Positions 862 to 58,450 of a stretch of DNA of 64,000 nucleotides are shown in pieces. The notes beneath the pieces are model-generated. The model was not told the DNA's origin, searched no databases, and saw only the letters and a program-made list of their open reading frames with translations. Every line of letters starts with the position of its first letter. Positions within the stretch are counted from its first letter, which is position 1. The translations under genes and the position numbers were made by a program. This DNA is from Mobula hypostoma (lineage: Eukaryota): positions 147,376,001-147,440,000 of the forward strand of contig NC_086097.1 in NCBI RefSeq assembly GCF_963921235.1. The letters are read 5' to 3'.

Positions 862-1264
862 TGTTGCAAGGACGTGGCTGAGGACAAACCCGAGTGCAGG
901 ACTCAGGCACAGAGACAGGGTCGTGAGGCACTAGCACAGTTGCGAATGTGGAACAGGTATCCAGGAGAGTCTTTACATGGAGACAAGGTTTACACAGATT
1001 ATCCAGGAAATGGTCCAGAGCTTAGAATTGACAGTCCTAAGGAATCAGGAAACAAGGTTACACACACTACAAACATTTGTAGAATAGACCAGCAAACTGG
1101 CAGCCCATTGCTGTGACTCCAGAGCTCTTATCCTGCATTCACTAATGGGAAGGAGGTGTGTTGTAATTAATGGAACTAGGAACAATTGGAAATCAGATGA
1201 GGGAATTAAGGCCCAATCAAGCAGATGATAGCAAGATGGGAGATTGCCAGACAGGACCATGAAA
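862..1264 (-). repeat. 3' LTR of chromovirus (~403 bp)
   Basis: Ends ...TGCAACA on the minus strand. Starts TTTCATGG (degenerate TGTCATGG) directly after the polypurine tract GGGGTGGGGAGTAC (1265-1278). Homologous to 4496-4745. Confidence 0.9.
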
Positions 1265-1702
1265 GTACTCCCCACCCCAAATGAGAGCCTCCAGGCCAAT
1301 CTCCAGGCTTCTCCGGATGGTCCCGATGTATGAGGGAGGGGTCCAGATGAAGGGGCGGGGAACCCAGGAATGCTCCTCTGGGCCGTACCCTTCCCAGTCG
1401 ACCAGGTATTGGAGACCCCTGCCCTGACGGTGCACATCCAGTAGCCTCTGGACGGTGTATGCCGGATGGTTGTTGATGATTCGGGTGGGTGGAGGGGTTT
1501 CGGTCGAAGGGCACAAGGGACTGACGGAAACTGGTTTTAATTGGGAAACATGAAACGTAGGATGGATGTGCATAGACTTCGGTAGCTTAAGTCGAACTGC
1601 TGTGGGGTTGATGATACTTTCGACTTCGAAAGGGCCCAGGAAGCGAGGGGCGAGTTTCTTAGGCTCATTTTTGAGAGAAATGTCTCTGGATGAGAGCCAC
1701 AC
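1217..1702 (-). pseudogene. Integrase C-terminus with GPY/F motif and chromodomain
   Basis: [12 protein letters not shown]...[11 protein letters not shown] followed by [34 protein letters not shown]. Confidence 0.9.
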
Positions 1703-4495
1703 CTTCTGACCAGGTCGATACTCAGGCGCTGGAGTCAGATGCCAATCGGCAATCCTCTAGTTGCGATCGGCCGATTGGAGCAGGGCCGTGCTTGTGTCCT
1801 CCCAAACCTTGCAGCACCGATCAATATGGGCCTGAACAGACTGCACCACAGTCTCCTCTTCTTGAATGGGAAACAGCAGGGGTTGGTAACCAAAGGAGCA
1901 TTCAAAAGGCGATCTTCTGGTGGCAGTACTAACCAGAGAGTTGTGGGCCTACTCTACCCACGCAAGCTGGTCACTCCAGGTAGATGGGTTGTTGGTTGTT
2001 ATGCAACGTAGTGCCGCCTCCAAATCCTGGTTGACCCGTTCCACTTGCCCGTTCGTCTGAGGATGGAAGTCGGATGACAGGCTAACGAAGGCACCCAGGG
2101 CTTGGCAGAAGGACTTCCATACCTGCGAGACGAATTGGGGACCCCGATCGGAGATGATACCCGCAGGGATTCCGTGGAGGCGAATGAGAAGGTCTGTGGT
2201 GTCTTGTGCCGAAAGGAGTTTAGGGAGGGCTACAAAATGCACTGTCTTGGAGAAGCGGTCTACCACGGTGAGTACAGTGGTGTTTCCATGTGACGGGGGT
2301 GGTCCCGTGATGAAATCTAGGGCGATGTGCGACCAAGGATGACCTGGGACAGGTAGGGGACGAAGTAATCCAGCAGGTGGCAGGTGGGAGGCTTTTCCGC
2401 GGGCACAGATGGAACATGCCAAGACATAGGAACGGGTATCCTCATAGGCCACCAAAAATGTCTTTTCAGGAGAGACAGTGTCCGATCACTCCCGGGGTGG
2501 CAGGCGAACCGAGATGTGTGCCCCCACTGGAGAACCTGAGAGCTGATGGAATCAGGCACAAAAAAGCGATTGGCAGGTTCATTGCCGGGGTCAGGGTCAT
2601 CCCGTTGGGCCTCTTTCACAATAGGCTCGGTTTCCTACGTGAGGGCTGACACCACACAGGATGGTGGGAAGATGGTCTCTGGGCTGGAAACATCCTTCTT
2701 GGAATTGTACTGGCAGGAGAGCACGTCAGGTTTCCCGTGTTTGGACCCTGGACAGTAGGTGAGAGTAATCTTGAGTTGTCCAAAATACAATGAGGGGCAG
2801 TGGGTACTTATTTTTGATGGTTATGTTATTTAGGCCTCGGTAATTGATACAGGGACGAAGCAAACCATCCTTTTTCTTGACAAGGAAGAAACTGGCGCCC
2901 ACTGGGGAGGATGAGGGTCGAATAATGCCCGCCACGAGGGACTCACTAATGTATTTTTCCATGGCCTCTCTCTCCGGTTGGGATAAGTTATAAAGACGAC
3001 TGGTGGGTAATGAGGCCCTGGGGGGAAGGTCAATAGTGCAATCATATGGGCGGTGCGGAGGCAGGGGTAGAGCCCATTTTTCGCTGAATACCTGTCCCAG
3101 GCTGTGGTATTCTGCGGGAATTCTGGACAAGTCAAGAGGCTCCAAGACAGGTGAGGTCGCGGTAGCCTCCCAGGGGATGGAGCCGACTGCAGACAGGTGG
3201 TGTGGCAAAATAGGCTCCAGCTGGCTATCCTCCCAGTAGACCAGTCAATGTTAGAGTTGTGGCTGTTCAACCAGGGGTATCATGGAACTGTAGGGGCTTG
3301 AGGAGAATGGATGAGATTAAATCGTACCTTCTCTCAATGGTTTCCGGACAGAATCAAGGTCAGGGGTGTCGTACAGTGGGTGACCTGAGCCAGAAGTTTT
3401 CTGTCCAGTGCCCGGGCCTCCAGAGGGGTACTTAATGGTTCCCGAGGAATTCCGGCCTGGGAGGCTATGTCCTTGTCCAGCAGATTTCCCTTGGCACCGG
3501 AATCCACCAAGGCGGATAGGGATAGGGACTGTTGTTGATAGGTTCACAGTAGCCGGGATTGGCATCCGGGTTTGGGGAACTGAAGGGAGGGTCGTCTGAC
3601 TCACCAGAACAGATGGAGCGGGAGTTACACCAGGAGCGGACGGGGAAGAGAGGCTGGCTGAAGATGGTAAGGTGGGCTGTAGGATGACCCGAGGAGCGGG
3701 ACGACCGGTCTTCTCTCTCAGACGCTCTCGAAGTCGATTATCTAGCCTGGTGGCTTGAGAGATCAATGAGTCCAGGCTGTTTGCGTCATCCCTTGCCGCT
3801 AGTTCATCTTTTATCTTGTTAGAGAGACCCTGTCGAAATACTTCCCGTAGTGCCTCGTCATTCCACCCAGAGTCGGCCGCTAATGTTCGGAACTCTATGG
3901 AGTATTTTGCTAAGCTTTGCAAGCCCTGACAGAGAGTCAGTAGGCACCTAGCGACGTCCTTACCGCGAATGGGCTGTTCAAAAACCTTCCTCATTTCAGA
4001 GATGAAGGAGAAGAAGGAGGAACAGACCTCTGGCCTGTTGTCCCAGATCACAGTGGCCTATGCTGAGGCATCCCCTCCTAACAGCCCCATGATGTATGCA
4101 ATTTATGATCTGTCTGAGGTGTACATACGTGGCTGTTGCTCAAAAACCAGAGAGCATTGTAGTAAGAAAGCCCGGCACTTCCCTAGGTCCCCTGTGTAGG
4201 GTTCCGGTTCGGGTACGTACAGCTCTCCAGGTGATTGTGTTTCGACCCAAGGGGTGCAGCCATCCCAGGCCGTGCGGTTTGGTCAGACTGGGTTCTTGGA
4301 AGGGATGGATTAAGGGGAGATATGATACGCGGTCAACCTGCTCACTGACCTCCTTTACATCCTCAGACAGGGCACGAAGATTTTCCATGACCTCTCTGAG
4401 CAGTTGATCATGTAAGCCCAGTAGGGATCCCTGGTTGACAAGGGCCTGTTGCACAGTGTCCATGTCTGCTGGGTTCATTCTGGGTCAGTTCGTTC

Positions 4496-4960: not shown

Positions 4961-5245
4961 TGTGGCGACCCACTTTCTGGCACCCACGAACCGGCTCACA
5001 ACAGCGCACGCAGGAAAGGGCCGGCCCCAAAAAGGGCGCCAGGCCACCTTCACCAGCAGGGGGAAAATCCCGTGCGCAGAAAGGGTCTGGGAATATGCAT
5101 TCCCCACAGTAGTCCCGCCCCAGGGAGGGCGGGAACGGGAAGGCTTTAAAGCAGGCCGCGAAGTCTGAATAAATCTTTTTCATCACAACTCTAACTCACC
5201 GACTCCGTGTGGTTATTCTAGCGCTGTGTGTAGCACATCGCTACA
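4961..5245 (+). repeat. 5' LTR (285 bp)
   Basis: TG...CA ends, AATAAA at ~5168. About 15-16 differences from the 3' LTR by eye, many at CpG. Confidence 0.95.
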
Positions 5246-5247
5246 AT

Positions 5248-5261
5248 TGGTGACCCCGACG
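5248..5261 (+). promoter_or_regulatory. Primer binding site complementary to the tRNA-Trp 3' end
   Basis: TGGTGACCCCGACG, 2 nt after the LTR, matches the first 14 nt of the canonical tRNA-Trp PBS TGGTGACCCCGACGTGAT. Confidence 0.9.
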
Positions 5262-5285
5262 GCCCAAACGATATTTGGACCAGAG

Positions 5286-5990
5286 ATGACCTACGCTGCA
5301 TCTGTTCACGCAGTTTCGTTAAAACTGCCAAGCTTCTGGACTCTGCGACCCCAATTATGGTTGGAACAGGCAGAAGCACAATTCCACATTCGGCAGATAA
5401 CCGCGGAGTCCACTCGCTACTACTACGTGCTGAGCTCTCTCGACCAGGAGACAGCTGCACAAGTTGAGGAGTTTATACAGTCGCCCCCGGAGGACGGCAA
5501 ATACACAGCATTCAAAGCCCTGCTCATAAGGACTTTCGGACTCTTACGGCGCGAACAAGCACGCTGCTTAATGCACCTGGATGGTTTGGGAGACAGGCTG
5601 CCGTCAGCATTAATGAACGAGATGCTGGCCCTGGCTGAAGGACACAAACCCTGCCTCATGTTTGAGCAGGCGTTCCTAGAGCAACTGCCCGAGGACATAT
5701 GCCTGCTGCTGTCCGACGCAGATTTCAGCAACCCCCGAGAGGTGGCAGCTGGAGCAGATGTGCTGTGGAATGCCAGGAAAGAGAGAGGGGCATCCATCGC
5801 ACAGATCACCAAGCCGCGTGCCCAACGACAGACCAGACCAGGCCCGGCAGCAGAGCCTACAAAACCCGGCGACGGGAGTGAGGAGCCCAACGAACAATGG
5901 TGTTTCTACCACCAGCGTTGGGGCACGGAGGCCCACCGCTGCAGACCACCCTGCAAATTCCCAGGAAACGCCAGGGCCAGCCGCCGCTGA
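5286..5990 (+). CDS. gag: Gag protein with CHCC nucleocapsid motif (open frame)
   Basis: AVSLKLPSFW...QAEAQFHIRQIT N-terminus and C-X2-H-X9-C-X3-C (CFYHQRWGTEAHRCRPPC). Confidence 0.9.
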   Translation: MTYAASVHAVSLKLPSFWTLRPQLWLEQAEAQFHIRQITAESTRYYYVLSSLDQETAAQVEEFIQSPPEDGKYTAFKALLIRTFGLLRREQARCLMHLDGLGDRLPSALMNEMLALAEGHKPCLMFEQAFLEQLPEDICLLLSDADFSNPREVAAGADVLWNARKERGASIAQITKPRAQRQTRPGPAAEPTKPGDGSEEPNEQWCFYHQRWGTEAHRCRPPCKFPGNARASRR

Positions 5991-8990
5991 TGGCTACGGT
6001 GGCTGGCCATCAGGACAGCCTCCTGTATGTCTGGGACAAGCAGTCGGGACGCCGCTTTTTGGTCGACACTGGAGTGGAGATCAGCGTCTTACCTCCAACG
6101 AGTTACGACACCTGCAACAGAGAACCGGGACCCACCCTGAGGGCCGCAAATGGCAGCACAATACGAACCTACGGCACCCACATGGTGCGGCTACAGTTCA
6201 GCTCCAGCCGGTTCACGTGGGACTTCACACTGGTCGCCGTGGCCCAACCACTCCTGGGGGCGGATTTTCTGCAAGCCCACAGCCTGCTGGTCGACCTGCA
6301 AGGGAAGCGATTAGTCCACGCCAAGACTTTTCAAACGTTCTCCCTGGGTGAAGCACAGTTGCCAGACCCACACCTGGACTCCATCACGCTGTCCGACGAC
6401 GAATTCAACAGGGTCCTGGCGGATTTCCCATCAGTACTGACACCGCAGTTCACAGCAGCCATGCCCAGACACGGAGTACAGCACCACATCCGACCCAGGG
6501 ACCACCCCTCCACGCCCGTGCTCGAAGGCTTCCCCAGGACAAGCTCCGACTGGCGAAGGAGGAGTTCAAGAAGATGGAGGAATTGGGGATCATACGACGG
6601 TCCGACAGCCCATGGGCCTCCCCCCTTCACATGGTGCCCAAGGCAACGGGGGGTTGGAGACCATGCGGTGACTACCGCAGACTGAACGAGGCTACAACGC
6701 CAGACCGCTACCCTATGCCACACATTCAAGACTTCGCAGCAAACCTACACGGCGCAAGGATCTTTTCCAAGGTAAACCTCCTCCGGGGATACCATCAAAT
6801 CCCTGTACATCCGGACGACATCCCCAAAACAGCCCTTATCACCCCGTTCGGACTTTTTGAATTCCTCCGAATGCCGTTTGGTCTAAAGAATGCCGCACAG
6901 ACTTTCCAGCGGCTAATGGACGCGGTGGGACGCGACCTGGACTTTGCATTCATCTATTTGGAAGACATCTTCATAGCCAGCAGTAGTCGGCAGGAGCATC
7001 TGTCCCACCTCCGCCAGCTCTACTCCCGCCTGAGCGAATTTGGCCTTACAATCAATCCAGCCAAATGCCAGTTCAGACTCGACACCATCGACTTCTTGGG
7101 CCACAGGATTACTAAAGACGGGGCAACCCCGCTGCCTGCCAAGGTAGACGCGGTCCGCAACTTCCCCCAACCCAACACAAACAAAGGCCTGCAGGAATTC
7201 GTGGGTATGGTGAATTTCTACCACCGTTTCCTCCCCTCAGCAGCCCGAACCATGCAACCCCTGTTCACTCTAATGTCGGGTAAGGGCAAGGACATTACCT
7301 GGGACGAAGAGGCCGCAACCACTTTCGTTAAAGCCAAAGAGGCCTTGGCAAACGCCGCGATGCTAGTGCACCCCAGAACGGACATTCCTACTGCTCTCAC
7401 GGTGGACGCATCCAACACAGCGGTCAGTGGAGTGCTGGAACAACTCATCGAGGGCCGCTGGCAACCCCTGGCGTTCTTCAGCAAACACCTACGACCACCC
7501 GAACTCAAATACAGTGCTTTCCACCGGGAGCTATTGGCACTATACCTGGCAATCCGACATTTCAGGTACTTCTTAGAAGGTAGGCCCTTCACCACGTTCA
7601 CAGACCACAAACCGCTTACCTTTGCGTTCATGAAGGTGTCCGACCCCTGGTTGTCCCGCCAGCAGTGACACCTGTCCTACATCTCCAAGTACACGACGGA
7701 CATCCGGCATGTCTCGGGAAAGGACAACGTCGTGGCGACGCACTTTCCAGACTGTCCCAGGGGGTGGACTATGCAGTGCTGGCAGAGGCACAGCAGGCAG
7801 ACACTGAGATCCCCAGTTACAGGACTGCAGTCTCCGGTTTGCAGCTCCAAGACCTCCCCGTAGGCCCAGGTGAGAGGGTCCTACTGTGTGACGTAGGAAC
7901 CGGCCAACCCTGTCCTGTCGTCCCAGCAGCCTGGCGCCGGCGGGTTTTCGAGTCCATTCACAACTTAGCACACCCCTCCATCAGGACAACCGTCCGGCTG
8001 GTCGCCAACAGGTTCGTGTGGCATGGACTGCGTAAACAGGTCAGTGAATGGGCCAAAACGTGCATGCAGTGCCAAACGGCCAAGGTGCAGTGGCATACCA
8101 AGGCTCTGCCGCAGCGGTTCGAACCCACCCGCCGGAGGTTTGACCACATCCATGTGGATATCGTGGGGCCCCTGCCAGTGTCACGAGGAGCACGGTACCT
8201 CCTAACTATGATAGACCGGTTCACCAGATGGCCAGAGGCAGTCCCACTCACCGACACCACCTCCGAATCCTGCGCCCGAGCACTGATCACAACCTGGGTA
8301 GCACGCTTTGGGGTACCGGCCCACATTACCTCCGACAGGGGCGCCCAGTTCACCTCCAGTCTGTGGTCAGGTATGGCCAACCTTTTAGGGTCTCAGCTAC
8401 ACCACACAACTGCCTACCACCCACAGTCGAACGGACTAGTGGAGTGCTTCCACCATCACCTGAAATCGGCTCTCATGGCCCGCCTGGAGGGGCCTAACTG
8501 GGTGGATGAGCTTCCCTGGGTCCTGCTCGGAATCCGCATGACGCCCAAAGAGGATCTGCACACCTCGTCGGCCGAGTTGGTGTACGGCACACCCCTGGTC
8601 GTCCCAGGAGAGTTCATACCAGCCCCAAGGGGCAAGAGGAAGAACCCGCAGCAGTCCTGGACAGACTACGGGAAAGGCTCAGTAACCTGGCCCCCATCCC
8701 CACTTCACAGCACGGACAGAGCCCGACCTGCGTACCCAAAGACCTGCAGAACTGTAAGTTTCTTTTTGTACGACGGGGGGGGGGGGAACACCAGGCACCG
8801 CCACAGCGGCCCTACGAGAGGCCGTTCAAGGTGATCAGGAACAACGGGTCCACGTTCGTGCTGGACATTGGGAGGAGAGAGGAGGTTTTCACGGTGGACC
8901 GACTCAAACTGGCCCATGTGGACTTGGCGCAGCTGATCCCGGCTCAGGCACCGCGGCGCAGGGGCAGACCTCCCAAACAGAGGCCGATCC
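5963..8990 (+). pseudogene. pol: pol (protease, RT, RNase H, integrase), disrupted
   Basis: FLVDTG protease. RT has degenerate catalytic motifs (FSKVNL, YLED). Frameshifts near 6490, 7735 and 8630, stop at 7666-7668. Integrase HHCC and D,D,E motifs (HVDIV, TSDRG, GLVE). Confidence 0.92.
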
Positions 8991-11762: not shown

Positions 11763-12434
11763 TACTTTATTTGCTACACATGGTATCAGCGAAATCACCA
11801 CTGACTGCTCACTGTGACACACTAGTACACCCAGCTATGCCATTACTTAGAGTTTAGCTCATTAGAAGACAGAGAGAGATACAGTGAACTATCATCACCT
11901 TTCTCTGCTGCCTGAGTAGGAACATATTGCAATAGGTAAGCAATTAATAGAATAAGGAGTAAATATTATTATCAAGATTTGCTGACATAGCATACAAAAC
12001 ACAGGATTTTTTTTTTTCTGGCCTGAAAAGCTGCTGCATTTTCTTGAAAGAGGTTTAATTTACTCACAGATGTTAATGAATCAGAACCTAATGTAGAGCA
12101 TATTTTTATCCATTGTGACTAAACCAATGAGATTCCAAAAAAAATCCATTGATAGCCTTCTTAAAAATATTTGGTCATACTGCAGAAAACAGTCCTTCAG
12201 TCCACCTTGTTCATGCTATACAAGATGTCCAGCTATGCTAGTCCTATTTGCCCATGTTTGACCCAGATCTCTCTAAATCTTTTCTATCCATGTAGCTCAT
12301 AGGGTCATGAAGTGCATTAACAAGCCCTTGGCCCAGCTGTCTAGGGCAATAAAAATATCCTATCTAAACTAGCAACATACATCAAAGTTGCTGGTGAACG
12401 CAGCAGGCCAAGCAGCATCTATAGGAAGAGGTGC

Positions 12435-12470
12435 AGTCGACGTTTTAGGCCGAGACCCTTCGTCAGGACT
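12435..12470 (-). ncRNA. Minimal type I hammerhead ribozyme, core mutated (GAAA->AAAA)
   Basis: Minus strand AGTC-CTGACGA-AGGGTCTCGGCCT-AAAA-CGTC-GACT. Confidence 0.7.
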
Positions 12471-12761
12471 AGTCAGACTAAATCTTTTCTATCCATGTAG
12501 CTCATAGGGTCATGCAGTACATTAACAAGCCCTTGGCCCAGCTGTCTAGGGCAATAAAAATATCCTATCTAAACTAGCAACTAGTCAGGACTAGTCAGAC
12601 TAAATCTTTTCTATCCATGTAGCTCATAGGGTCATGAAGTGCATTAACAAGCCCTTGGCCCAGCTGTCTAGGGCAATAAAAATATCCTATCTAAACTAGC
12701 AACATACATCAAAGTTGCTGGTGAACGCAGCAGGCCAAGCAGCATCTATAGGAAGAGGTGC

Positions 12762-12797
12762 AGTCGACGTTTCAGGCCGAGACCCTTCGTCAGGACT
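12762..12797 (-). ncRNA. Minimal type I hammerhead ribozyme (Penelope-type), intact core
   Basis: Minus strand AGTC-CTGACGA-AGG(GTCTCGG)CCT-GAAA-C-GTC^-GACT: helix I AGTC/GACT, conserved CUGANGA and GAAA boxes, GUC cleavage triplet. Confidence 0.85.
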
Positions 12798-13088
12798 AGT
12801 CAGACTAAATCTTTTCTATCCATGTAGCTCATAGGGTCATGCAGTACATTAACAAGCCCTTGGCCCAGCTGTCTAGGGCAATAAAAATATCCTATCTAAA
12901 CTAGCAACTAGTCAGGACTAGTCAGACTAAATCTTTTCTATCCATGTAGCTCATAGGGTCATGCAGTGCATTAACAAGCCCTTGGCCCAGCTGTCTAGGG
13001 CAATAAAAATATCCTATCTAAACTAGCAACATACATCAAAGTTGCTGGTGAACGCAGCAGGCCAAGCAGCATCTATAGGAAGAGGTGC

Positions 13089-13124
13089 AGTCGACGTTTC
13101 AGGCCGAGACCCTTCGTCAGGACT
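13089..13124 (-). ncRNA. Minimal type I hammerhead ribozyme, intact core
   Basis: Identical to the 12762-12797 copy, 327 bp away. Confidence 0.85.
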
Positions 13125-13134
13125 AGTCAGACTT

Positions 13135-13170
13135 AGTCCTGACGAAGGGTCTCGGCCTGAAACGTCGACT
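13135..13170 (+). ncRNA. Minimal type I hammerhead ribozyme, intact core
   Basis: AGTCCTGACGAAGGGTCTCGGCCTGAAACGTCGACT; predicted cleavage after C13166. Confidence 0.85.
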
Positions 13171-13282
13171 GCACCTCTTCCTATAGATGCTGCTTGGCCT
13201 GCTGCGTTCACCAGCAACTTGGATGTATGTTGCTTGAATTTCCAGCATCTACAGAATTCCTGTTGTTTGCTATCTAAACTAG

Positions 13283-13880
13283 TCCCATTTGCCAGCAATT
13301 GGCCCATAACCTTCTAAATCTTTCGTCCATATTCCTGTCCAGTTATTATTATACTTGTCCCAAGCACCATAGATGCTACCCTATGTGTAAAGAAGCTGAT
13401 CCTCAAGTTCTTATTAAATCCTTCTTCTTCCACTTAAAACCTATGTCCTCCAGTTCTTTTTTATAAAACACTGGGAAGAAAAACTGTGTACATTCATCCC
13501 ATCTACACTCTTCATGATTTTATATGCCTCTATTAGATCACCCCTCATGTTTCTTAAACTGTATGGAATAAAGTCATAATCTGTCCAGCCTCTCCCTCTT
13601 AGTCAGTCCTTTGGATCCTGGCACCATCCTTGTAAATCTTTTCAGTGCTCTTTCCAGTTTAATACCATCTTTCCCATAACAGAGTGACAAAACACAGCGT
13701 CACCAACATCCTCCTGAACTGTCCGAATGTCTTTTAAGTGTGGTTAATGTACCTGCCTCTGGCAGTTCATTCCATAGACTGTACATACCCATCCTTCGTG
13801 TGAAAACAAATGCCCTTCAAGATCCCATTATCTATTTCTGCTCTCACCTTAAAACAATGCCCTTGATTTCCTGATTCCCC
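13283..13880 (-). mobile_element. Old CR1 3' fragments (target of the Penelope insertion)
   Basis: Degenerate similarity to the CR1 3' ends at 42200-42620 and 53080-53420. Confidence 0.6.
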
Positions 13881-24819: not shown

Positions 24820-26025
24820 AGATGCAATTCCTCCGTCTCCACTGCACCTGCCCACAGGATGAGGCTTTTCATTTCAGAACACCAGAAATGTCCTCCTTCC
24901 TCAAAGAAAGGGCCTTCCCTTTCTCCACCATCAGCGCTTCCACACCTGCATATCTTCCATTTCACCCCACCCTCCTGCCGCCATACCAGGGATAGGGTTC
25001 CTCTTGTCCTCACCTACCACCCTACAAGCCTCTACATCCAGCACATAATTCTCCGTAACTTCCACCATCTCCAATGAGATTCCACCACCAAGCACATCTT
25101 TCCCTCCCCCCAACTTTCTGCTTTCTGCAGGGGTTGCTCCCCACATGACTCCCTTGTCCATTTGTTCCTCCCCACTGATCTCCCTCCTGGCACTTATCCT
25201 TGCCAGTGGAACAAGTGCCACACCTGCCCCTACACCTCCTCCCTCACTACTGTTCAGGGCCACAAATAGTCCTTCCAGGTGAGGTGACACTTCATCTGTG
25301 AGCCTGTTGGTGGTCATCTACTGTATCCAGTGCTCCCGGTGTGGCCTCCAGTATATCAGTGACACCCAACACAGGTGGAGAGACCACTTTGCAAGTACCT
25401 GCACTCCATCCACCAGAAAAAGAGGGATCTCCCAGCGGCCACCCATTTTAATTCTACCTCCCATTCCCATTCCGACATGTCAGTCCATGGCGTCCTCTAC
25501 TGCCATGAAGAGGCCACACTCAGGTGGAGGAGCAACACCTTATTCTCTGTCTGGGTAGCCTCCAACTTAATGGCATGGATGTCAATCTCTCAAACTTCTG
25601 GTAATGCCACCCCTCCTTCTCCATTCCCTATTTTTATTTCCTTCTCACACTTGCTCTTCTTAAACACCTCTCTCTGGTGTTTGTCCTCCTTCTCTTTCTT
25701 CCATGGTCTTTTGTCCTATTCTATAAGATTCTCCCATTTTCTGGGCCTTTTTCTCTTTCACCAAGCAACTTCCCAGCTCTTTACTTCACCCCTCCCCCTC
25801 TTCCAGTTCCACCTGTCACTTGTCACCTTATACTTCCTCCTCCCGTCTTCTCACCTTCTGATTCTGACTGCTTTCCCCTTTTCTTTCCAGTCCTGATGAA
25901 AGGTCTCGGCTTGAAACGTCGACTGTTCATAACTTTCCATGGGTGCTGCCTGGCCTGCTGAGTCCTTCCAGCATTTTGTGTGTGTTGCTTGGATTTCCAG
26001 CATCTGCAGATCTTCTTGTGTTTGT
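24820..26025 (+). mobile_element. Penelope-like element 3' part, degraded
   Basis: Homologous to 36839-38050 (RVPLVLTYHPTS, GIY-YIG region VIYCIQCSRCGLQYI). Pyrimidine-rich 3' UTR, hammerhead and 3' tail present. Confidence 0.88.
25888..25925 (+). ncRNA. Minimal type I hammerhead ribozyme
   Basis: CAGTC-CTGATGA-AAG(GTCTCGG)CTT-GAAA-CGTC-GACTG. Helix II is AAG/CTT versus AGG/CCT in the other copies. Confidence 0.82.
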
Positions 26026-27414
26026 GCAGCATCTCTAATGTTCTGTTTGCTTAATTCTGCAAGTTTATACAGTTTCTCTTCTCAATTGTGCCTATCTTAT
26101 ATAAATAAATAAATTTTGGTGTTGATTTCTACAAAAATAGCCCCACTTACTAATTTAAATTTTACTTGCATCCATTCTTTTTCCAGGGAATACTTATGTA
26201 CATGTCTGGCATGATTCTCCCTAATGACAAATACCAAATATGGCATGGAACTATAGATTCTGCACACTGTAGACCTATTGAAAGGTGCTACAAGTTGTGA
26301 TCTAATGCTCACAGTTCAGGTGCAATGTTAGGTTGTTTTATAGTTCCACATCCCCCTTACTTTCCCCTCCTTTTCTTTCTTCTTATCTGTATCAGTGGTG
26401 TGGTTTGCTGCGAACAGTATTCTTTAATTGTGCTGAGCCACTGCTGTGAATTCTGTGAAAGGGCAAACCAGGTTCTATGACTTGAAATTGTTGACTGTGA
26501 TTTCTTAAGGCAAAAATGGTCCAATTTAGTAATTTTTTTGGCAATGATGCTTTGGCATAAAGGAAAGGCACCATACCTATTTAGTACACCAAAAATTCAT
26601 GAAATCCAACTTCAGGCTTTATTCTCAGATTCAATAAGGACCAATTTTTCCTTCCTCATGCCTGGCTGCTCCATTTTGGACTACTTAATGGAAACAAATT
26701 TAAAATCTTCAATAGAAACAATATGCTTTTCTAATTTGTTTGCGAAGTTAGCTGTATAATTATCTGCCAAGACCAACCTTGAATGAACTCCCAGGTTTGT
26801 CAAAACGTTTTTATTTCAACTTTGCTGGTGGCTGCAGTTCAATTCAAATACGGTTGTTCTCGCTTAAATCTACACAACCTACTTTTTCATTCAACCTACC
26901 CTTCCAGAAACCTTCGTGTCATTCCAACAATATTTCTAATTACTGTTATTCAACTGGGCCACAAGAATATACTGTAAATTCTATCAGCTTTATGCAAGAA
27001 ACAAGTTGGCTGTTGGTTTAACATTTTAATTTTTTCCTATTTATTCGTTGCTTTCAATATTTAAATAGATCTTCCTAATTTCTTATACTGCAATGTTACT
27101 TGCATAATCATATATCGACAGTCTTCTCTCTCCTCTGCACCTTTGTCTTTAACCTCCTGTGAAATGGTAATTCCTTTTACTCTTCCTAGAGGCAGATACA
27201 TCAGCCATTTTGATATTGTTCTATAGAACTGTCTCTTTAACTATCTATCTCTATTTTCAAAATGTCTCAGCTATTCGTCTCTAACCTCACTCCAGTGCTT
27301 TCTTAAATGTTTTTATGAATTGTTTTGTGAAATATATTTATCTAAATGTGCTGAATGAATGGGTGAGCATTTTTCTGAAATGATCACAATTCCCTGATCT
27401 TTACCAAAGCTTTG

Positions 27415-35186: not shown

Positions 35187-36901
35187 CAATTGATTGGCTA
35201 ATTCAATTCTTTCTTTATTAGCTTTATTCTTAACATTTGCAGTATAAGAAATAATTTGTCCTCTAATATAGGCCTTGAAAGTGTCCCATACAATAAGATT
35301 AGAAGTTTCTTCTTTTTTATTCTCTTCAAAAAACAAAATAATATGCTTCTCTAGAAATTTAAACAATTCCTTATCAGATAACAAAGTTGTATTAAAATGC
35401 CAAAATCTATTGGTTTGAAGTAGACCAGGGAGTTTTAAAGATAGAAATATAGGAGCATGATCTGAAACAGCAATCTCTTTATATTCACATGAACGAACTG
35501 ATGCATCTGACGATCGATAAAAAAAAATCAGTCCTGGAATATGTATGATCAACATGGAAAAAAAACGAATACTCCCTATCTAAAGGATATAAAAATACCA
35601 AACATCAACTATACCACACTTCAATAAAAAGGATTGAATAAACAAAGCTGATTTATTCAGAGACACTGGTTTAGAAGATGATCGGCCTAAAATTGGGTCT
35701 AGCCAACAGTCAAAGTCTTCTCCCATCACCAAAGAAAAAAGATTCAGATCTGATAAAAATGAAAAAAAAAAGCTCAAAGAATCCTGGATCATCTATATTT
35801 GGGGCATACACATTGGCAAATACTATTAATTTATTATCTAGTTTTCTGAAAATATAGCAAAACATCCATTAGTATCAGACACTACTTTACGTTGGACAAA
35901 GGCAAGTGTATTATCTATAAAAATCGAAACTCCTCTAGATTTGGCCTGAAAAGAAGAGTGAAAACAAAGTCCATTCCAACGGCTAAAAAAAAATAGATTA
36001 TTACATTTGTGTATGTGAGTTTCTCGTAAAAAGAAAAGAGACCTTAAATTTCTTAATATAAGCAAAAATCTTACTATGTTTAACAGGGTGATTTAACCCT
36101 TTTATGTTAAAACTGAGTATATTAATAGTTTGGTCCATTTTTAATATTATTTAAAGGAAGGGTAAAGTGTAAGTTAACAACCAAGCCATAAGCCCTGAGA
36201 AATGGTAACCAAGCAACAAGTTGGCTAAAAATTCGAAAGCAGTTTCTGGGAAATAAATACCCACCCCACCCACCTCCCAAAGAAAGAAAACCAACCAATA
36301 GAAAGTCGGCATCTAAAGCTATGGGCAACCTCCCAAAAAACCTGGTGAGGACTCCAATTAGTTTCAAGGTTATTCATATTCCAACCTAGACTAAATAATA
36401 CCTAAACAAGAGATTTAATTGTCCTATATCAAAAGTACAGTATAGGTTCCCCCCGCCAACCGAAGGTAGAGCGTTCCTATGAAACGGTTCGTAAGCAAGA
36501 ATATCGTAAAGTGAATAAGCAATTACCATTTATTAATATGGGAAATATTTTTGAGCGTTCCCAGACCCAAAAAAACCCTACAAAATCATGCCAAATGACA
36601 CGTAAAACCTATAAAAACAGTAACATATAGTAAAAGCAGGAATGATATGATAAGTACACAGCCTATATAAAGTAGAAATACTTTTCTGCAGCACTGTCTA
36701 GCGCAGCGAACATCTCGCGGAAGCGCTCTTGGCAGAATCACTCTGTCCAGTAACCTTTAAGCTATGAAGCTGTCAAATCGTACCAAATAACACATAAAAA
36801 TACAAAGCCTATATAAAGTAGACATAATGTATGTACAGGCAACATACATCAAAGTTGCTGGTGAACGCAGCAGGCCAAGCAGCATCTATAGGAAGAGGTG
36901 C

Positions 36902-36937
36902 AGTCGACGTTTCAGGCCGAGACCCTTCGTCAGGACT
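36902..36937 (-). ncRNA. Minimal type I hammerhead ribozyme in the Penelope 3' pLTR
   Basis: Identical to the intact copies in the 12.3-13.3 kb array. Confidence 0.85.
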
Positions 36938-37235
36938 AACTGAAGGAAGAGTGAGTAAGGGATTTGAAAGTTGGAGGGGGAGGGGGAGATCCAAAATGAT
37001 AGGAGAAGACAGGAGGGGGAGGGATAGAGCCGAGAGCTGGACAGGTGATAGGCAAAAGGGGATACGAAAGGATCATGGGACAGGAGGTCCGGGAAGAAAG
37101 ACAAGGAGGGGGGGGGTGACCCAGAGGATGGGCAAGAGGTATATTCAGAGGGACAGAGGGAGAAAAAGGAGAGTGAGAGAAAGAATGTGTGCATAAAAAT
37201 GAGTAACAGATGGGGTACGAGGGGGAGGTGGGGCC

Positions 37236-38594
37236 TTAGCGGAAGTTAGAGAAGTCGATGTTCATGCCATCAGGTTGGAGGCTACCCAGACGGAATATGA
37301 GGTGTTGTTCCTCCACCCTGAGTGTAGCTTCATCTTTACAGTAGAGGAGGCCGTGGACAGACATGTCAGAATGGGAATGGGATGTGGAATTAAAATGTGT
37401 GGCCACTGGGAGATCCTGCTTTCTCTGGCGGACAGAGCGTAGATGTTCAGCAAAGCGGTCTCCCAGTCTGCGTCGGGTCTCACCAATATATAAAAGGCCA
37501 CATCGGGAGCACCGGACACAGTATATCACCCCAGTCGACTCACAGGTGAAGTGATGCCTCACCTGGAAAGACTGTTTGGGGCCCTGAATGGTGGTAAGGG
37601 AGGAAGTGTAAGGGCATGTGTAGCACTTGTTCCGCTTACACGGATAAGTGCCAGGAGGGAGATCAGTGGGGAGGGATGGGGGGGACGAATGGACAAGGGA
37701 GTTGTGTAGGGAGCGATCCCTGCGGAATGCAGGGGGGGGGGAGGGAAAGATGTGCTTAGTGGTGGGATCCCGTTGGAGGTGGCGGAAGTTACGGAGAATA
37801 ATATGTTGGACCCGGAGGCTGGTGGGGTGGTAGGTGAGGACCAGGGGAACCCTATTGCTAGTGGGGTGGTGGGAGGATGGAGTGAGAGCAGATGTACGTG
37901 AAATGGGGGAGATACGTTTAAGAGCAGAGTTGATAGTGGAGGAAGGGAAGCCCCTTTCTTTAAAAAAGGAAGACATCTCCCTCGTCCTAGAATGAAAAGC
38001 CTCATCCTGAGAGCAGATGCGGCGGAGACGGAGGAATTGCGAGAAGGGGATGGCGTTTTTGCAAGAGACAGGGTGAGAAGAGGAATAGTCCAGATAGCTG
38101 TGAGAGTCAGTAGGCTTATAGTAGACATCAGTGGATAAGCTGTCTCCAGAGACAGAGACAGAAAGATCTAGAAAGGGGAGGGAGGTGTCGGAAATGGACC
38201 AGGTAAACTTGAGGGCAGGGTGAAAGTTGGAGGCAAAGTTAATAAAGTCAACGAGTTCTGCATGCGTGCAGGAAGCAGCGCCAATGCAGTCGTCGATGTA
38301 GCGAAGGAAAAGTGGGGGACGGATACCAGAATAGGCACGGAACATAGATTGTTCCACAAACCCAACAAAAAGGCAGGCATAGCTAGGACCTATACGGGTG
38401 CCCATAGCTACACCTTTAGTTTGGAGGAAATGGGAGGAGCCAAAGGAGAAATTATTAAGAGTAAGGACTAATTTCGCTAGACGGAGCAGAGTGGTGGTAG
38501 AGGGGAACTGATTAGGTCTGGAATCCAAAAAGAAGCGTAGAGCTTTGAGGCCTTCCTGATGGGGGATGGAAGTATATAAGGACTGGACATCCAT
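37236..38594 (-). CDS. Penelope-type reverse transcriptase + GIY-YIG endonuclease (N-terminally truncated)
   Basis: MDVQSLYTSIP, GVAMG, RYIDD, FLDL, then GVIYCVRCSRCGLLYIGET. The frame stays open upstream to the truncation at ~38949 (FYLLPKIHKP..GRPIVS). Confidence 0.93.
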   Translation of the reverse strand: MDVQSLYTSIPHQEGLKALRFFLDSRPNQFPSTTTLLRLAKLVLTLNNFSFGSSHFLQTKGVAMGTRIGPSYACLFVGFVEQSMFRAYSGIRPPLFLRYIDDCIGAASCTHAELVDFINFASNFHPALKFTWSISDTSLPFLDLSVSVSGDSLSTDVYYKPTDSHSYLDYSSSHPVSCKNAIPFSQFLRLRRICSQDEAFHSRTREMSSFFKERGFPSSTINSALKRISPISRTSALTPSSHHPTSNRVPLVLTYHPTSLRVQHIILRNFRHLQRDPTTKHIFPSPPPAFRRDRSLHNSLVHSSPPSLPTDLPPGTYPCKRNKCYTCPYTSSLTTIQGPKQSFQVRHHFTCESTGVIYCVRCSRCGLLYIGETRRRLGDRFAEHLRSVRQRKQDLPVATHFNSTSHSHSDMSVHGLLYCKDEATLRVEEQHLIFRLGSLQPDGMNIDFSNFR

Positions 38595-40014
38595 GGTGAA
38601 AATAAAGCGGTGGGGGCCAGGGAACTTAAAATCATCGAAAAGTTTAAGAGCGTGAGAAGTGTCACGAACATAGGTCGGAAGGGATTGAACAAGGGGTGAT
38701 AAAACAGTGTTGAGGTATGCAGAAATGAGTTCGGTGGGGCAGGAGCAAGCTGAGACAATAGGTCGGCCAGGACAGGCAGGTTTGTGGATCTTGGGTAGGA
38801 GGTAGAAACGGAAAGTGCGGGGTGTGGGAACTATAAGGTTGGTAGCAGTGGATGGGAGATCCCCTGAGTGGATAAAGTCGGTGATGGTGTGGGAGACAAT
38901 GGCCTGGTGCTCCTTAGTGGGGTCACGATCGAGGGGTAAATAAGAGGAGGTATGTACAGTGTAGTTTCACTTGCTGGAATCAGGAAGACTCCAATAAATT
39001 GCAGTTTCGTCACAGTGAAATCTTTTAAAGTCACAAAAGACTGCAGGTGCTAGAATATGGAACAGAAAACAATCTGCTGGAGGAACTCAATAGGTTGAAT
39101 AGCATCATCGAGACGATAAATGAATTATCGACCCAGAATACCAGTCTAAAAATGCTCACACAAGCCGAGTTTCATTTCCAACCAGGATGACTATCTGCTG
39201 ATGTGAAAATCCCTGCTTTCATCTGTGTTTAAGGTCAGCTTTCAGTGTCAAGTTCTCTGCTCCATTACAGTTTCTTTTACTGGAATGACTGCCATATGGT
39301 TCTCTTCATGGAGTCAATAGTTCTCTTCAAGTACCGACAAAATTCTTTCCATTCTTTGATTATTTTTCCAATTTCAGCTTGCGTTGACATATGGTATTAC
39401 ATTCGTATGATTGTATATTGTTAGTAGTTATTTTACCTCTAAGAAATAAAAATATATATACCATCTGGCCCTTCAGGCCTGTTTCACAGTTCAATACAAT
39501 CGTGGCTCAACATTCAAATTTATCTGCCTTCACCCCTTATCCCTTGATACCTCAACCCTAAGAACTATATTTAACTCCTTGAGTATGTGTAATGATTTAG
39601 CTACAACTACTTCTTATGGTGGAGAATGCAACAGATTCACTGATACCTAAGTGAAAAATTTTCTTAATCACATTGATATATGGCTTCCTGTTATTCTTTG
39701 ATGTGACTTTGAGTTCTGGATTTTCAGACCATTGGAATCATCCATTCTATATCTAATTTGCCCCATCCTGATAGAACTTTGTGAGTTTCTATGATGTCCC
39801 CACTAAACCTCCTAAACTGTAGTAATTACAGTATAACCCAAATTCACTAAATCTCTCTTCATAAATCAGCCTTGCAATTCTTTCAAGTTCTCTTACATAT
39901 TTAAATATGATATTATATGTTGCACCATTGTGTAGTTGGAACTTCACAAAACCTCTTTCTACTTTTGGAGACTGGAATTGAATATGTGATCTTTACTGTT
40001 CACCTGCTCACTTT

Positions 40015-42916: not shown

Positions 42917-43687
42917 CAAGGGGTGGTTCGTAAGTTTGTGGCCTGAGGTAGAAGGAGTCAATTTTAGAAAACCTAGCACATTTATTTTTCAACATAGCCC
43001 CCTCCTACATTTACACACTTAGTCCAGCAGTCGTGGAGCATACGGATCTTGGACCTCCAGAAAGTGCCTTCAGCAGGGATGATTGATAAGTTTGTGGCCT
43101 AAGGTAGAAGGAGATGAGTTATACAGCTCTCGTTACAGGCATGTGCAGTTCAACTCTTTGAGTGATTATGCAGAAAGTTTGAAGTTAATAACTCATCAGT
43201 TAATAACCCATCAGGGGTAATTGATAAGTTTGTGGCCCAAGGTAGAAGGAGATGGGTTATTAACTTCAAACTTTCTGCATAATCACTCAAAGAGTTGAAC
43301 TGCATGTGTATGTAATGAGAACTGTATAACTCATCTCCTTCTACCTTAGGCCATGAACCTATTAATCATCCCTGCTGTGGACACTTTCTGGAGGTCCAAG
43401 ATCCGTATGCTCCACGACTGCTGGACTAAGTGTGTAAATGTAGGAGGGGACTATGTTGAAAAATAAATGTGCTAGGTTTTCTAAAATTCACTTCTTTTAC
43501 CTTAGGCCATGAACTTATCAATCACCCCTGCTGTGGACCACTTCTACAAAGAAGGGATCCGTATGCTCCACAACCGCTGGACTAAATGTGTACATGTAGG
43601 AGGGGACTATGTTGAAAACTAACTGTGCTAGGTTTTCTAAAACTGACTCCTTCTACCTCAGGCCATGAACTTATCAATCACCCCTTG
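42917..43687. mobile_element. Tc1/mariner-derived palindromic MITE
   Basis: TA flanks. TIRs CAAGGGGTG...AAGTTTGTGGCCTGAGGTAGAAGGAG and its reverse complement. TIR-like unit reiterated internally. Confidence 0.88.
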
Positions 43688-54094: not shown

Positions 54095-54630
54095 TAACCA
54101 TAAGACTGTAAGATATAGGAGCAGAAGTAGGCTATTTGGCCCATTGAGTCTGCTCCACCACTCAATCATGGGCTGATTCAATTCTTCCAGTCATCCCCAC
54201 TCCCCATGCCCTGGCTAATCAAGAACCTATCTATCTCTGTTTTAAATGCACCCAATGACGGCCTCCACAGCCACTTATGGCAACAAATTCCACAGATTTA
54301 CCAACCTTTGACTAAAGTAATTTCTCCACATCTCTGTTCTAAATGGATGTCCTTCAATACTGAAGTCATGCCCCCTTGTTCTGGACTCCCCTACCATGGT
54401 AAATAACTTTGCCATATCTAAGCTAGGAAGATGCTGCCTGGCCTGCTGCGTTCACCAGCAACTTTTATGTGTGTTGCTTGAATTTCCAGCATCTGCAGAA
54501 TTCCTGTTGTTTGCCATATCTAATCTGTTCAGGCCTTTTATCATTCAGAATGTTTCTAGGAGATCCCCCCTCATTCTCCTGAACTCCAGGGAATACCGCC
54601 CAAGAGCTGCCAGACGTTCCTCATATGGTG
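54095..54630 (-). mobile_element. CR1 3' fragment carrying a micro Penelope insertion
   Basis: CR1 tail CCATAAGACTGTAAGATATAGGAGCAGAAG, interrupted at 54422-54512. Confidence 0.8.
54422..54512 (+). mobile_element. ~90-bp Penelope 3'-end insertion
   Basis: Similar to 13185-13269 including the tail. Flanked by duplicated GCCATATCTAA (54411-54421, 54513-54523). Confidence 0.88.
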
Positions 54631-58282: not shown

Positions 58283-58450
58283 CGTAAATCTCTTACTATC
58301 TCTTCTTTCAGTTAGTCCTGATGAAGGGTCTCAGCCCAAAACGTCAACTGTACCTCTTCCTACAGATGCTGCCTGGCCTTCTGCGTTCACCAGCAATTTT
58401 TATGTGTGTTGCTTAAAATTCCAGCATCTGCAGATTTCCTCGTGTTTGCG
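58283..58450 (+). mobile_element. Penelope 3'-end fragment with decayed hammerhead (58314-58349)
   Basis: AGTCCTGATGAAGGGTCTCAGCCCAAAACGTCAACT (GAAA box mutated), followed by the tail. Confidence 0.82.

Follow-up and report, generated by a model that had tools for sequence, protein, structure and literature searches.

A hammerhead ribozyme motif recurring every 327 nt next to copies of flanking host DNA raises the question whether the locus at positions 12273-13282 of the window is a retrozyme in the making or the trace of an insertion that was multiplied where it stood. The window is the whole stretch of DNA analysed here, 64,000 nucleotides of Mobula hypostoma (NCBI RefSeq assembly GCF_963921235.1, contig NC_086097.1, positions 147,376,001 to 147,440,000 of the forward strand), and coordinates refer to it unless another locus is named. 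We consider it quite probable that the array is a short head-to-head Penelope-like insertion, and that three successive tandem duplications likely multiplied it on site, along with 100 bp of its left flank. The array is probably inert. The insertion type as such is known; what is unusual is the amplification that contains the flank.

Layout and parts of the array

By sequence alignment and repeat finding the array reads A-B-A-j-A-B-A-j-A-B-[inverted B + tail] across 12273-13282, which is the layout that an earlier, sequence-only reading had drawn. Repeat finding assigns to the array a tandem period of 327 with 2.6 copies. A is present in five copies of 100 nt each (starting at 12273, 12478, 12600, 12805 and 12927) and B in three copies of 99 nt each (starting at 12373, 12700 and 13027). 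B2 and B3 are identical to window positions 36840-36938 over 99 nt and B1 differs solely at 12446, again as the sequence-only reading had it. Its length for A, about 104 bp, has to be corrected to 100 nt for the flank part (12273-12372), as the larger number counts the first bases of B; that A ends at the insertion site is right. The description of the flank as old CR1 remnants holds in part: the right flank resembles the 3' end of a LINE in the window, presumably of CR1, but A searched alone for repeat similarity gave no match. Positions 12175-12297 resemble a dispersed old repeat at 65-74% identity.

The first copy of A (A1, 12273-12372, plus strand) is the original left flank. It ends in the left copy of a 13-bp target-site duplication (CTATCTAAACTAG, 12360-12372, plus strand) and carries a derived A at 12310, where a related organism has C. 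It is followed by B1 (12373-12471, minus strand), a tailless Penelope-like terminal repeat end whose hammerhead core is mutated from GAAA to AAAA at 12446, and by the left half of the palindrome-centre filler (12472-12477, plus strand), which has a 2-nt CT microhomology to the start of A and at which the 205-bp unit of the first duplication ends. The flank copy A2 (12478-12577, plus strand) has the ancestral C and a derived A at 12519. The segment j (12578-12599, plus strand) consists of the first 3 nt of B, a 3-nt filler and a 16-nt copy of the B-end junction, and is the seam of the 122-bp duplication. Positions 12600-12926 (plus strand) hold the second 327-bp unit (A3, B2, A4, j), which was copied from 12273-12599 when two substitutions had already occurred there. 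Next come A5 in the ancestral state (12927-13026, plus strand) and B3 (13027-13125, minus strand) with an intact hammerhead at 13088-13125 and a predicted cut at 13093/13092. The 8-nt centre of the head-to-head palindrome (13126-13133), the arms of which are 101 nt long and 99% complementary, leads to the inverted arm with its 37-nt tail (13134-13269, plus strand). A fourth hammerhead, likewise intact, lies on the plus strand of this arm (core at 13139, predicted cut 13166/13167), and the right copy of the target-site duplication (13270-13282, plus strand) closes the array. The plus-strand hammerhead and the 13-bp target-site duplication are additions to the earlier description.

The Penelope-like insertion frame

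The outer ends of the array are those of an ordinary head-to-head mini-insertion. Its left arm has no tail, its inverted right arm carries the 37-nt tail, and the 13-bp target-site duplication encloses both; the arm sequence B matches 36840-36938 at 99-100%. The earlier characterisation of the array as a Penelope end joined to captured target-site DNA is supported. The genome contains 1,682 head-to-head junctions at the hammerhead, 876 with at most 25 nt in between and 806 with 26-55 nt. For comparison 87 loci were examined, of which 22 were not called two-armed and were left out. One tailed and one tailless arm were found in 64 of the 65 two-armed loci and target duplications of 12-16 bp in 59 of the 65 (lengths approximate; offsets and one mismatch allowed).

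Another member of this Penelope-like family, young and 5'-truncated, lies at 36840-38949 on the minus strand, has a 10-bp target duplication and contains an open frame of 576 aa. The reverse transcriptase match of this frame stays just below the Pfam cut-off (27.8 vs 29.6 bits), and a motif that was read by eye, and for which Pfam gave no match, is presumably of the GIY-YIG type. The copy was used as a reference and is not a shown donor. Exact copies of the hammerhead core of the array number 39,517 in the genome. The statement that B is the end of the Penelope at 36839 is thus correct as a sequence match and falls as a derivation from that particular copy, the role of which as donor is untraceable among so many identical cores. 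For the same reason the intact cores of the array are uninformative on selection.

The frame resembles the inverted pLTR insertions known for Penelope-like elements that encode an endonuclease, which have a tail of 30-40 bp on one side (PMC8557442, PMC3846280, PMC11167929). As far as these are described in the cited texts, both have head-to-head arms, a tail on one arm, a target-site duplication, a minimal hammerhead within the terminal repeat and a short palindromic centre. In contrast to them the arms of the array are merely 100-136 nt long, its left arm is repeated three times, and five flank copies lie inside the target duplication. An anole Penelope protein is reported to cut and extend both strands in vitro, with two internal start sites bracketing the tail, and to require RNA beyond these start sites, while the anole ribozyme needed protein to cut (PMC11167929).

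Older or shorter ends of related Penelope-like copies were also seen at window positions 25889-26024, 54429-54514 and 58286-58449, one of them with an intact-looking hammerhead at 25893. At 36938-36962 (minus strand) and at many head-to-head loci a pyrimidine run ending in CAG lies just upstream of helix I. In many copies TACTAAC precedes this run, and we take the two to resemble a branch point and a 3' splice site. Most inverted arms among those listed end within ~27 nt of the pyrimidine-CAG point. For the Penelope element of Drosophila virilis an intron end at helix I was reported (PMC4209133).

Order of events

Starting from flank, B, the 8-nt centre and the inverted arm, a model with three tandem duplications (205, 122 and 327 bp), a 3-nt filler and three point mutations rebuilds 12100-13400 at 1,301 of 1,301 positions. 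Six mismatches of the model are accounted for by the three mutations, which are C to A in A1 (passed on to A3), G to A in A2 (passed on to A4) and C to T in B1. The first duplication (205 bp) begins where A begins, reaches halfway into the palindrome centre and is joined at CT; the second comprises 122 bp with the 3-nt filler, and the third 327 bp.

The derived variants are common to A1 and A3 and to A2 and A4, with the polarity taken from a related organism. There, A is single copy, and a contig that crosses it with the depth of the flank has C at position 12310 and G at 12314; in another run of this organism the contig alignment ends before B. From depth and alignment stops we infer an empty insertion site in the relative. 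As the relative shows the state of A5 to be ancestral, the 327-bp duplication is later than the first two mutations, and the ribozyme spacing is for that reason a late DNA event. The 327-bp period is accordingly the last step of the series and later than the others, a local duplication of DNA rather than the product of an RNA circle.

As a mechanism we propose, starting from the ends as they are shown, that the endonuclease of the element would have nicked both strands 13 nt apart. At each nick reverse transcription would have begun, entering the template at one of two internal start sites, and the tailless and the tailed arm would have met just past the hammerhead, giving the palindrome with its 101-bp arms. 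The 205-bp duplication may then have arisen when synthesis switched templates at the 2-nt microhomology, leaving the palindrome centre and resuming where A starts, and a second switch may have duplicated 122 bp with the 3-nt filler. These two duplications could have taken place during repair of the insertion or afterwards, plausibly at the hairpin. The one breakpoint at the palindrome centre, taken with general knowledge, suggests a hairpin-induced template switch; a second flank-containing duplication (L122, see below) speaks against such a trigger, as its breakpoints lie in the flanks and not at its palindrome centre. One substitution each in A1 and A2 preceded the duplication of the 327-bp block, an order that is shown by the variants, and this block was probably duplicated by unequal exchange. 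The core of B1 would have mutated after that, and the presence of one hammerhead per 327 nt would be a by-product.

Comparable rearrangements are known from L1 twin priming and L1 insertion sites (PMC11702581) and from the templated insertions of polymerase theta (PMC2895639). Like the cases described in these sources, the array presumably arose by reverse transcription from both ends of a staggered cut; it likewise retains a discrete target duplication and has duplications and flank-templated sequence at the site. It differs from them in the element class, in a copied flank of 100 nt as compared to the 3-8-nt runs of the fly enzyme (PMC2895639), and in the additional later duplication.

Hammerhead motifs and their predicted folding

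The minus-strand hammerheads are located exactly 327 nt apart, two with intact cores and one with GAAA changed to AAAA, and the earlier claim to this effect stands on core consensus and stems. Besides the motif in B3, an intact minimal type I hammerhead is found in B2 (12761-12798, minus strand, predicted cut 12766/12765). The motifs possess the CUGANGA / GAAA / NUH core, helices I and II and a palindromic helix III, and three of the four are intact. Helix I has 5 bp, helix II 3 bp, and helix III is a palindromic ACGU without loop; the predicted motif fold has -11.0 kcal/mol. An Rfam scan of the window returned no hammerhead family at E<=1; the call is based on core consensus and stems. The two predicted cuts on the minus strand (13093/13092 and 12766/12765) would fit the 327-nt piece that had been expected between the intact ribozymes. 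The predicted monomer (12766-13092, minus strand) contains neither the tail of the element nor the sequence downstream of the tail, in place of which it carries host DNA.

The active hammerhead fold is not the predicted minimum. Forcing both hammerheads to form costs 15.8 kcal/mol, or 23.9 kcal/mol with the inverted arm in the RNA, as against 10.8 kcal/mol in an element-only array. The fold is thus predicted to be disfavoured in the array, and more so with the inverted arm. Folding programs miss the hammerhead fold in the parent element too.

Distribution of the chimera in the genome

A search of the one assembly, in which 40 of 2,016 candidates were scored, found the A-B chimera at full length only at this locus. 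A-j-A has one candidate locus in the same assembly, and the flank-Penelope junction pattern with one mismatch allowed has five matches in the genome, all five inside the array. On the question whether the chimera has moved elsewhere, no second site was found in this assembly.

Element-end direct repeats within 400 nt occur 412 times in the genome. Upstream flank reaching beyond a target duplication was seen in two of 81 distinct direct-repeat spacers, which came from part of the 412 matches, 20 of them hand-picked, and from further loci; these two are the array and L122. Many other unique spacers separate distinct insertions with their own target duplications. Among 86 other inverted or snap-back loci none has at least 25 nt of flank copied inside the insertion, three flagged rows being other repeats. 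Flank capture as a general habit of this Penelope-like family was rejected on these counts. Accidents of flank copying appear to recur but to be uncommon, and none was seen to have moved.

The second case, L122:1377-2142 (G000:C1:150280360), is a 383-bp tandem duplication that includes a whole inverted mini-insertion and ~149 nt of flank; both of its minus-strand cores are altered at the cut motif. At L154:1393-1699 (G000:C52:96609296) an inverted 31-nt copy of the left flank plus the target duplication lies between the arms. A literature search over titles and abstract starts, with most subscription journals outside its scope, yielded no description of a Penelope end amplified with target flank; the supplements of a recent preprint on retrozymes (10.64898/2026.07.22.740005) may list units like that of the array.

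Alternative readings of the array

Palindromes and tandem repeats are prone to mis-assembly (PMC8557442), and among the contigs listed none spans the whole array, so that a simple two-armed insertion could have been expanded by the assembler. We looked at this through contig depth in two DNA runs (X1, X2) of one sample, which may be the source of the assembly; contigs were placed on the unique flank and the first A only, to avoid the repeat family, and their depth is not a copy number. The three variants of A have depths of 29.4, 28.9 and 14.4 with a flank of 14.7 in X1, and of 27.3, 25.5 and 13.3 with a flank of 12.4 in X2. The variants therefore stand 2:2:1 in both runs, which is the ratio in the assembly with its five copies of A, and the shared part of A is at ~5x flank depth (70/14.7 in X1, 65/12.4 in X2). 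In both runs a loose end ahead of 12273 shows the junction of the B end to A (12472-12477). Since the depth ratios are independent of the assembler, the array is not made by it; the contigs give five copies of A and not the single unit that an artefact would leave, and this reading, already largely refuted, is scarcely credible. The depths suggest that the array is on both chromosomes of the sequenced animal. A real array could also have been produced as a whole during a single integration, by a rolling-circle mechanism or by repeated template switching with a chimeric RNA or cDNA. That one target duplication encloses the entire insert would agree with this, as would the fillers at other head-to-head loci, which resemble repeated short templated runs as in polymerase theta end joining (PMC2895639), and the existence of element-only arrays with repeated identical junctions (L169, L144). 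However, the derived base in A1 is also in A3 and absent from A2, A4 and A5; the first copies were therefore already in place when the 327-bp repeat was made, unless another allele served as their template. Moreover the copies contain the target duplication and the centre filler, and hence a finished complementary strand served as template. We regard a single event as improbable.

The remaining alternative is a nascent functional retrozyme, in which a transcript of the minus strand would be cut by the two intact hammerheads acting as a dimer, and the released 327-nt RNA would be circularised for the Penelope reverse transcriptase. In favour of this, two intact cores follow one another in the array, each with a 5-bp helix I and an ACGU palindrome as helix III, the unit size and the GC content of 44.6% are within the range of animal retrozymes (PMC7229834), and by period and motif fold the array falls under the sequence rule of Li et al. 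2026 for a retrozyme, tandem units with two consecutive complete hammerheads (bioRxiv 10.64898/2026.07.22.740005). In a rotifer, pLTRs were enough by themselves for unrelated cargo to be moved (PMC3846280), and the array is apparently on both chromosomes of the sequenced animal. Also the folding costs have to be read with a caveat as to inertness, as folding misses the parent hammerhead as well and the anole ribozyme is protein-assisted (PMC11167929). Against these points stand the lack of a second copy in the one assembly searched, those same costs, the decay of one of the three minus-strand cores, and a monomer without tail and element sequence beyond it, where the anole enzyme needed RNA past its start sites (PMC11167929). 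The motif is of the minimal Penelope type and not the canonical type I hammerhead of Cervera and de la Pena 2020; hammerheads of this minimal type cleave weakly, also when they are dimeric (PMC4209133), and eight of nine predicted Xenopus dimers did not cut (10.64898/2026.07.22.740005). In the presumed RNA runs X15 and X16 there is no contig cover on A-only bins, a blank which counts neither way. A functioning retrozyme is in our view very improbable. With the chimera unmoved, the period arising from a late DNA duplication, the unit tailless and one core mutated, the proposed birth of a retrozyme as a functioning element is not upheld, and the fallback of the sequence-only reading, an inert integration scar, fits best. 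Judged from its sequence, the array would be an integration scar amplified in place, retrozyme-like in layout and probably inert.

Relation to retrozymes

The array has several features of the animal non-LTR retrozymes (PMC7229834; 10.64898/2026.07.22.740005): tandem units of ~300 bp with less than 50% GC, derivation from a pLTR, and one type I hammerhead per unit. Unlike them it is a single locus with a minimal hammerhead instead of a canonical one, two thirds of its unit are local flank, and an inverted complementary arm is attached. The preprint derives animal retrozymes from Penelope ends via local amplification and unequal crossover, for which the support in its text consists of co-occurrence and sequence similarity only (10.64898/2026.07.22.740005); the array fits this route. 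The cargo between Penelope pLTRs in Adineta vaga (PMC3846280) is similar in that non-element DNA lies between terminal repeats within one target duplication, but it came from elsewhere, whereas the cargo of the array is the target's own flank copied in place.

The array is a base-by-base record of the proposed first step of retrozyme origin. It comes with the order of events and with a relative in which the site is presumably empty, and illustrates how a retrozyme-type unit could take up host DNA that is foreign to the element. Retrozyme screens that use such sequence rules will count dead scars too. As biology the array is probably a neutral one-off. That a retrozyme was caught here at birth, with a Penelope end and its own target DNA welded into a 327-nt unit that is cut and circularised, is highly doubtful; if it were true, the more than 1,600 palindromic Penelope mini-insertions would keep generating locus-specific ribozyme repeats as seeds of new retrozyme families.

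Element-only arrays and other observations

Tandem hammerhead arrays that consist of element sequence only were found at six loci (L169, L144, L118, L145, L110, L123). In most of them the tail and as much as 175 nt past it belong to the array, and a target duplication is present at five of the six loci. L169:1416-2308 (G000:C36:141144986) contains three intact cores 265 nt apart, and L144:1974-3239 (G000:C2:157816556) four 310-nt units with an alternating variant. Another element-only junction is the same at exactly three sites on three contigs (L166, L168 and L177; G000:C12:116733780, C22:61153131, C52:61311350). Its unit of ~301 nt has two hammerhead-bearing ends, and two of the sites have their own target duplications; it is possibly a small mobilised derivative, or else a recurrent junction. 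The element-only arrays (L169, L144, L166/L168/L177) are better candidates for living retrozymes than the flank-containing array.

Two further types of rearrangement were seen. L125 has an insertion without target duplication; directly at its 5' junction stands a 96-nt stretch copied from a sequence 500 nt away (826-921 and 1322-1417). The loci L183 and L184 (G000:C99:1795590, 2067010) are near-identical, in opposite orientation and nested in another copy, and consist of three tandem 75-nt tail fragments plus an inverted arm.

Pfam was run on 99 of the 178 stop-to-stop frames of at least 75 aa in the window and returned retroelement-type domains and two weak matches below cut-off; no host gene around the array was identified among these 99 frames. 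A DUF1908 match at 26360-26596 was inspected and is not believed. The window also contains two LTR-retrotransposon remnants (1220-4057, minus strand; 5169-8831, plus strand) with matches to gag, protease, reverse transcriptase, RNase H, integrase and chromodomain, and a 156-bp tandem repeat at 43328-43685 with 2.3 copies and 85% matches.
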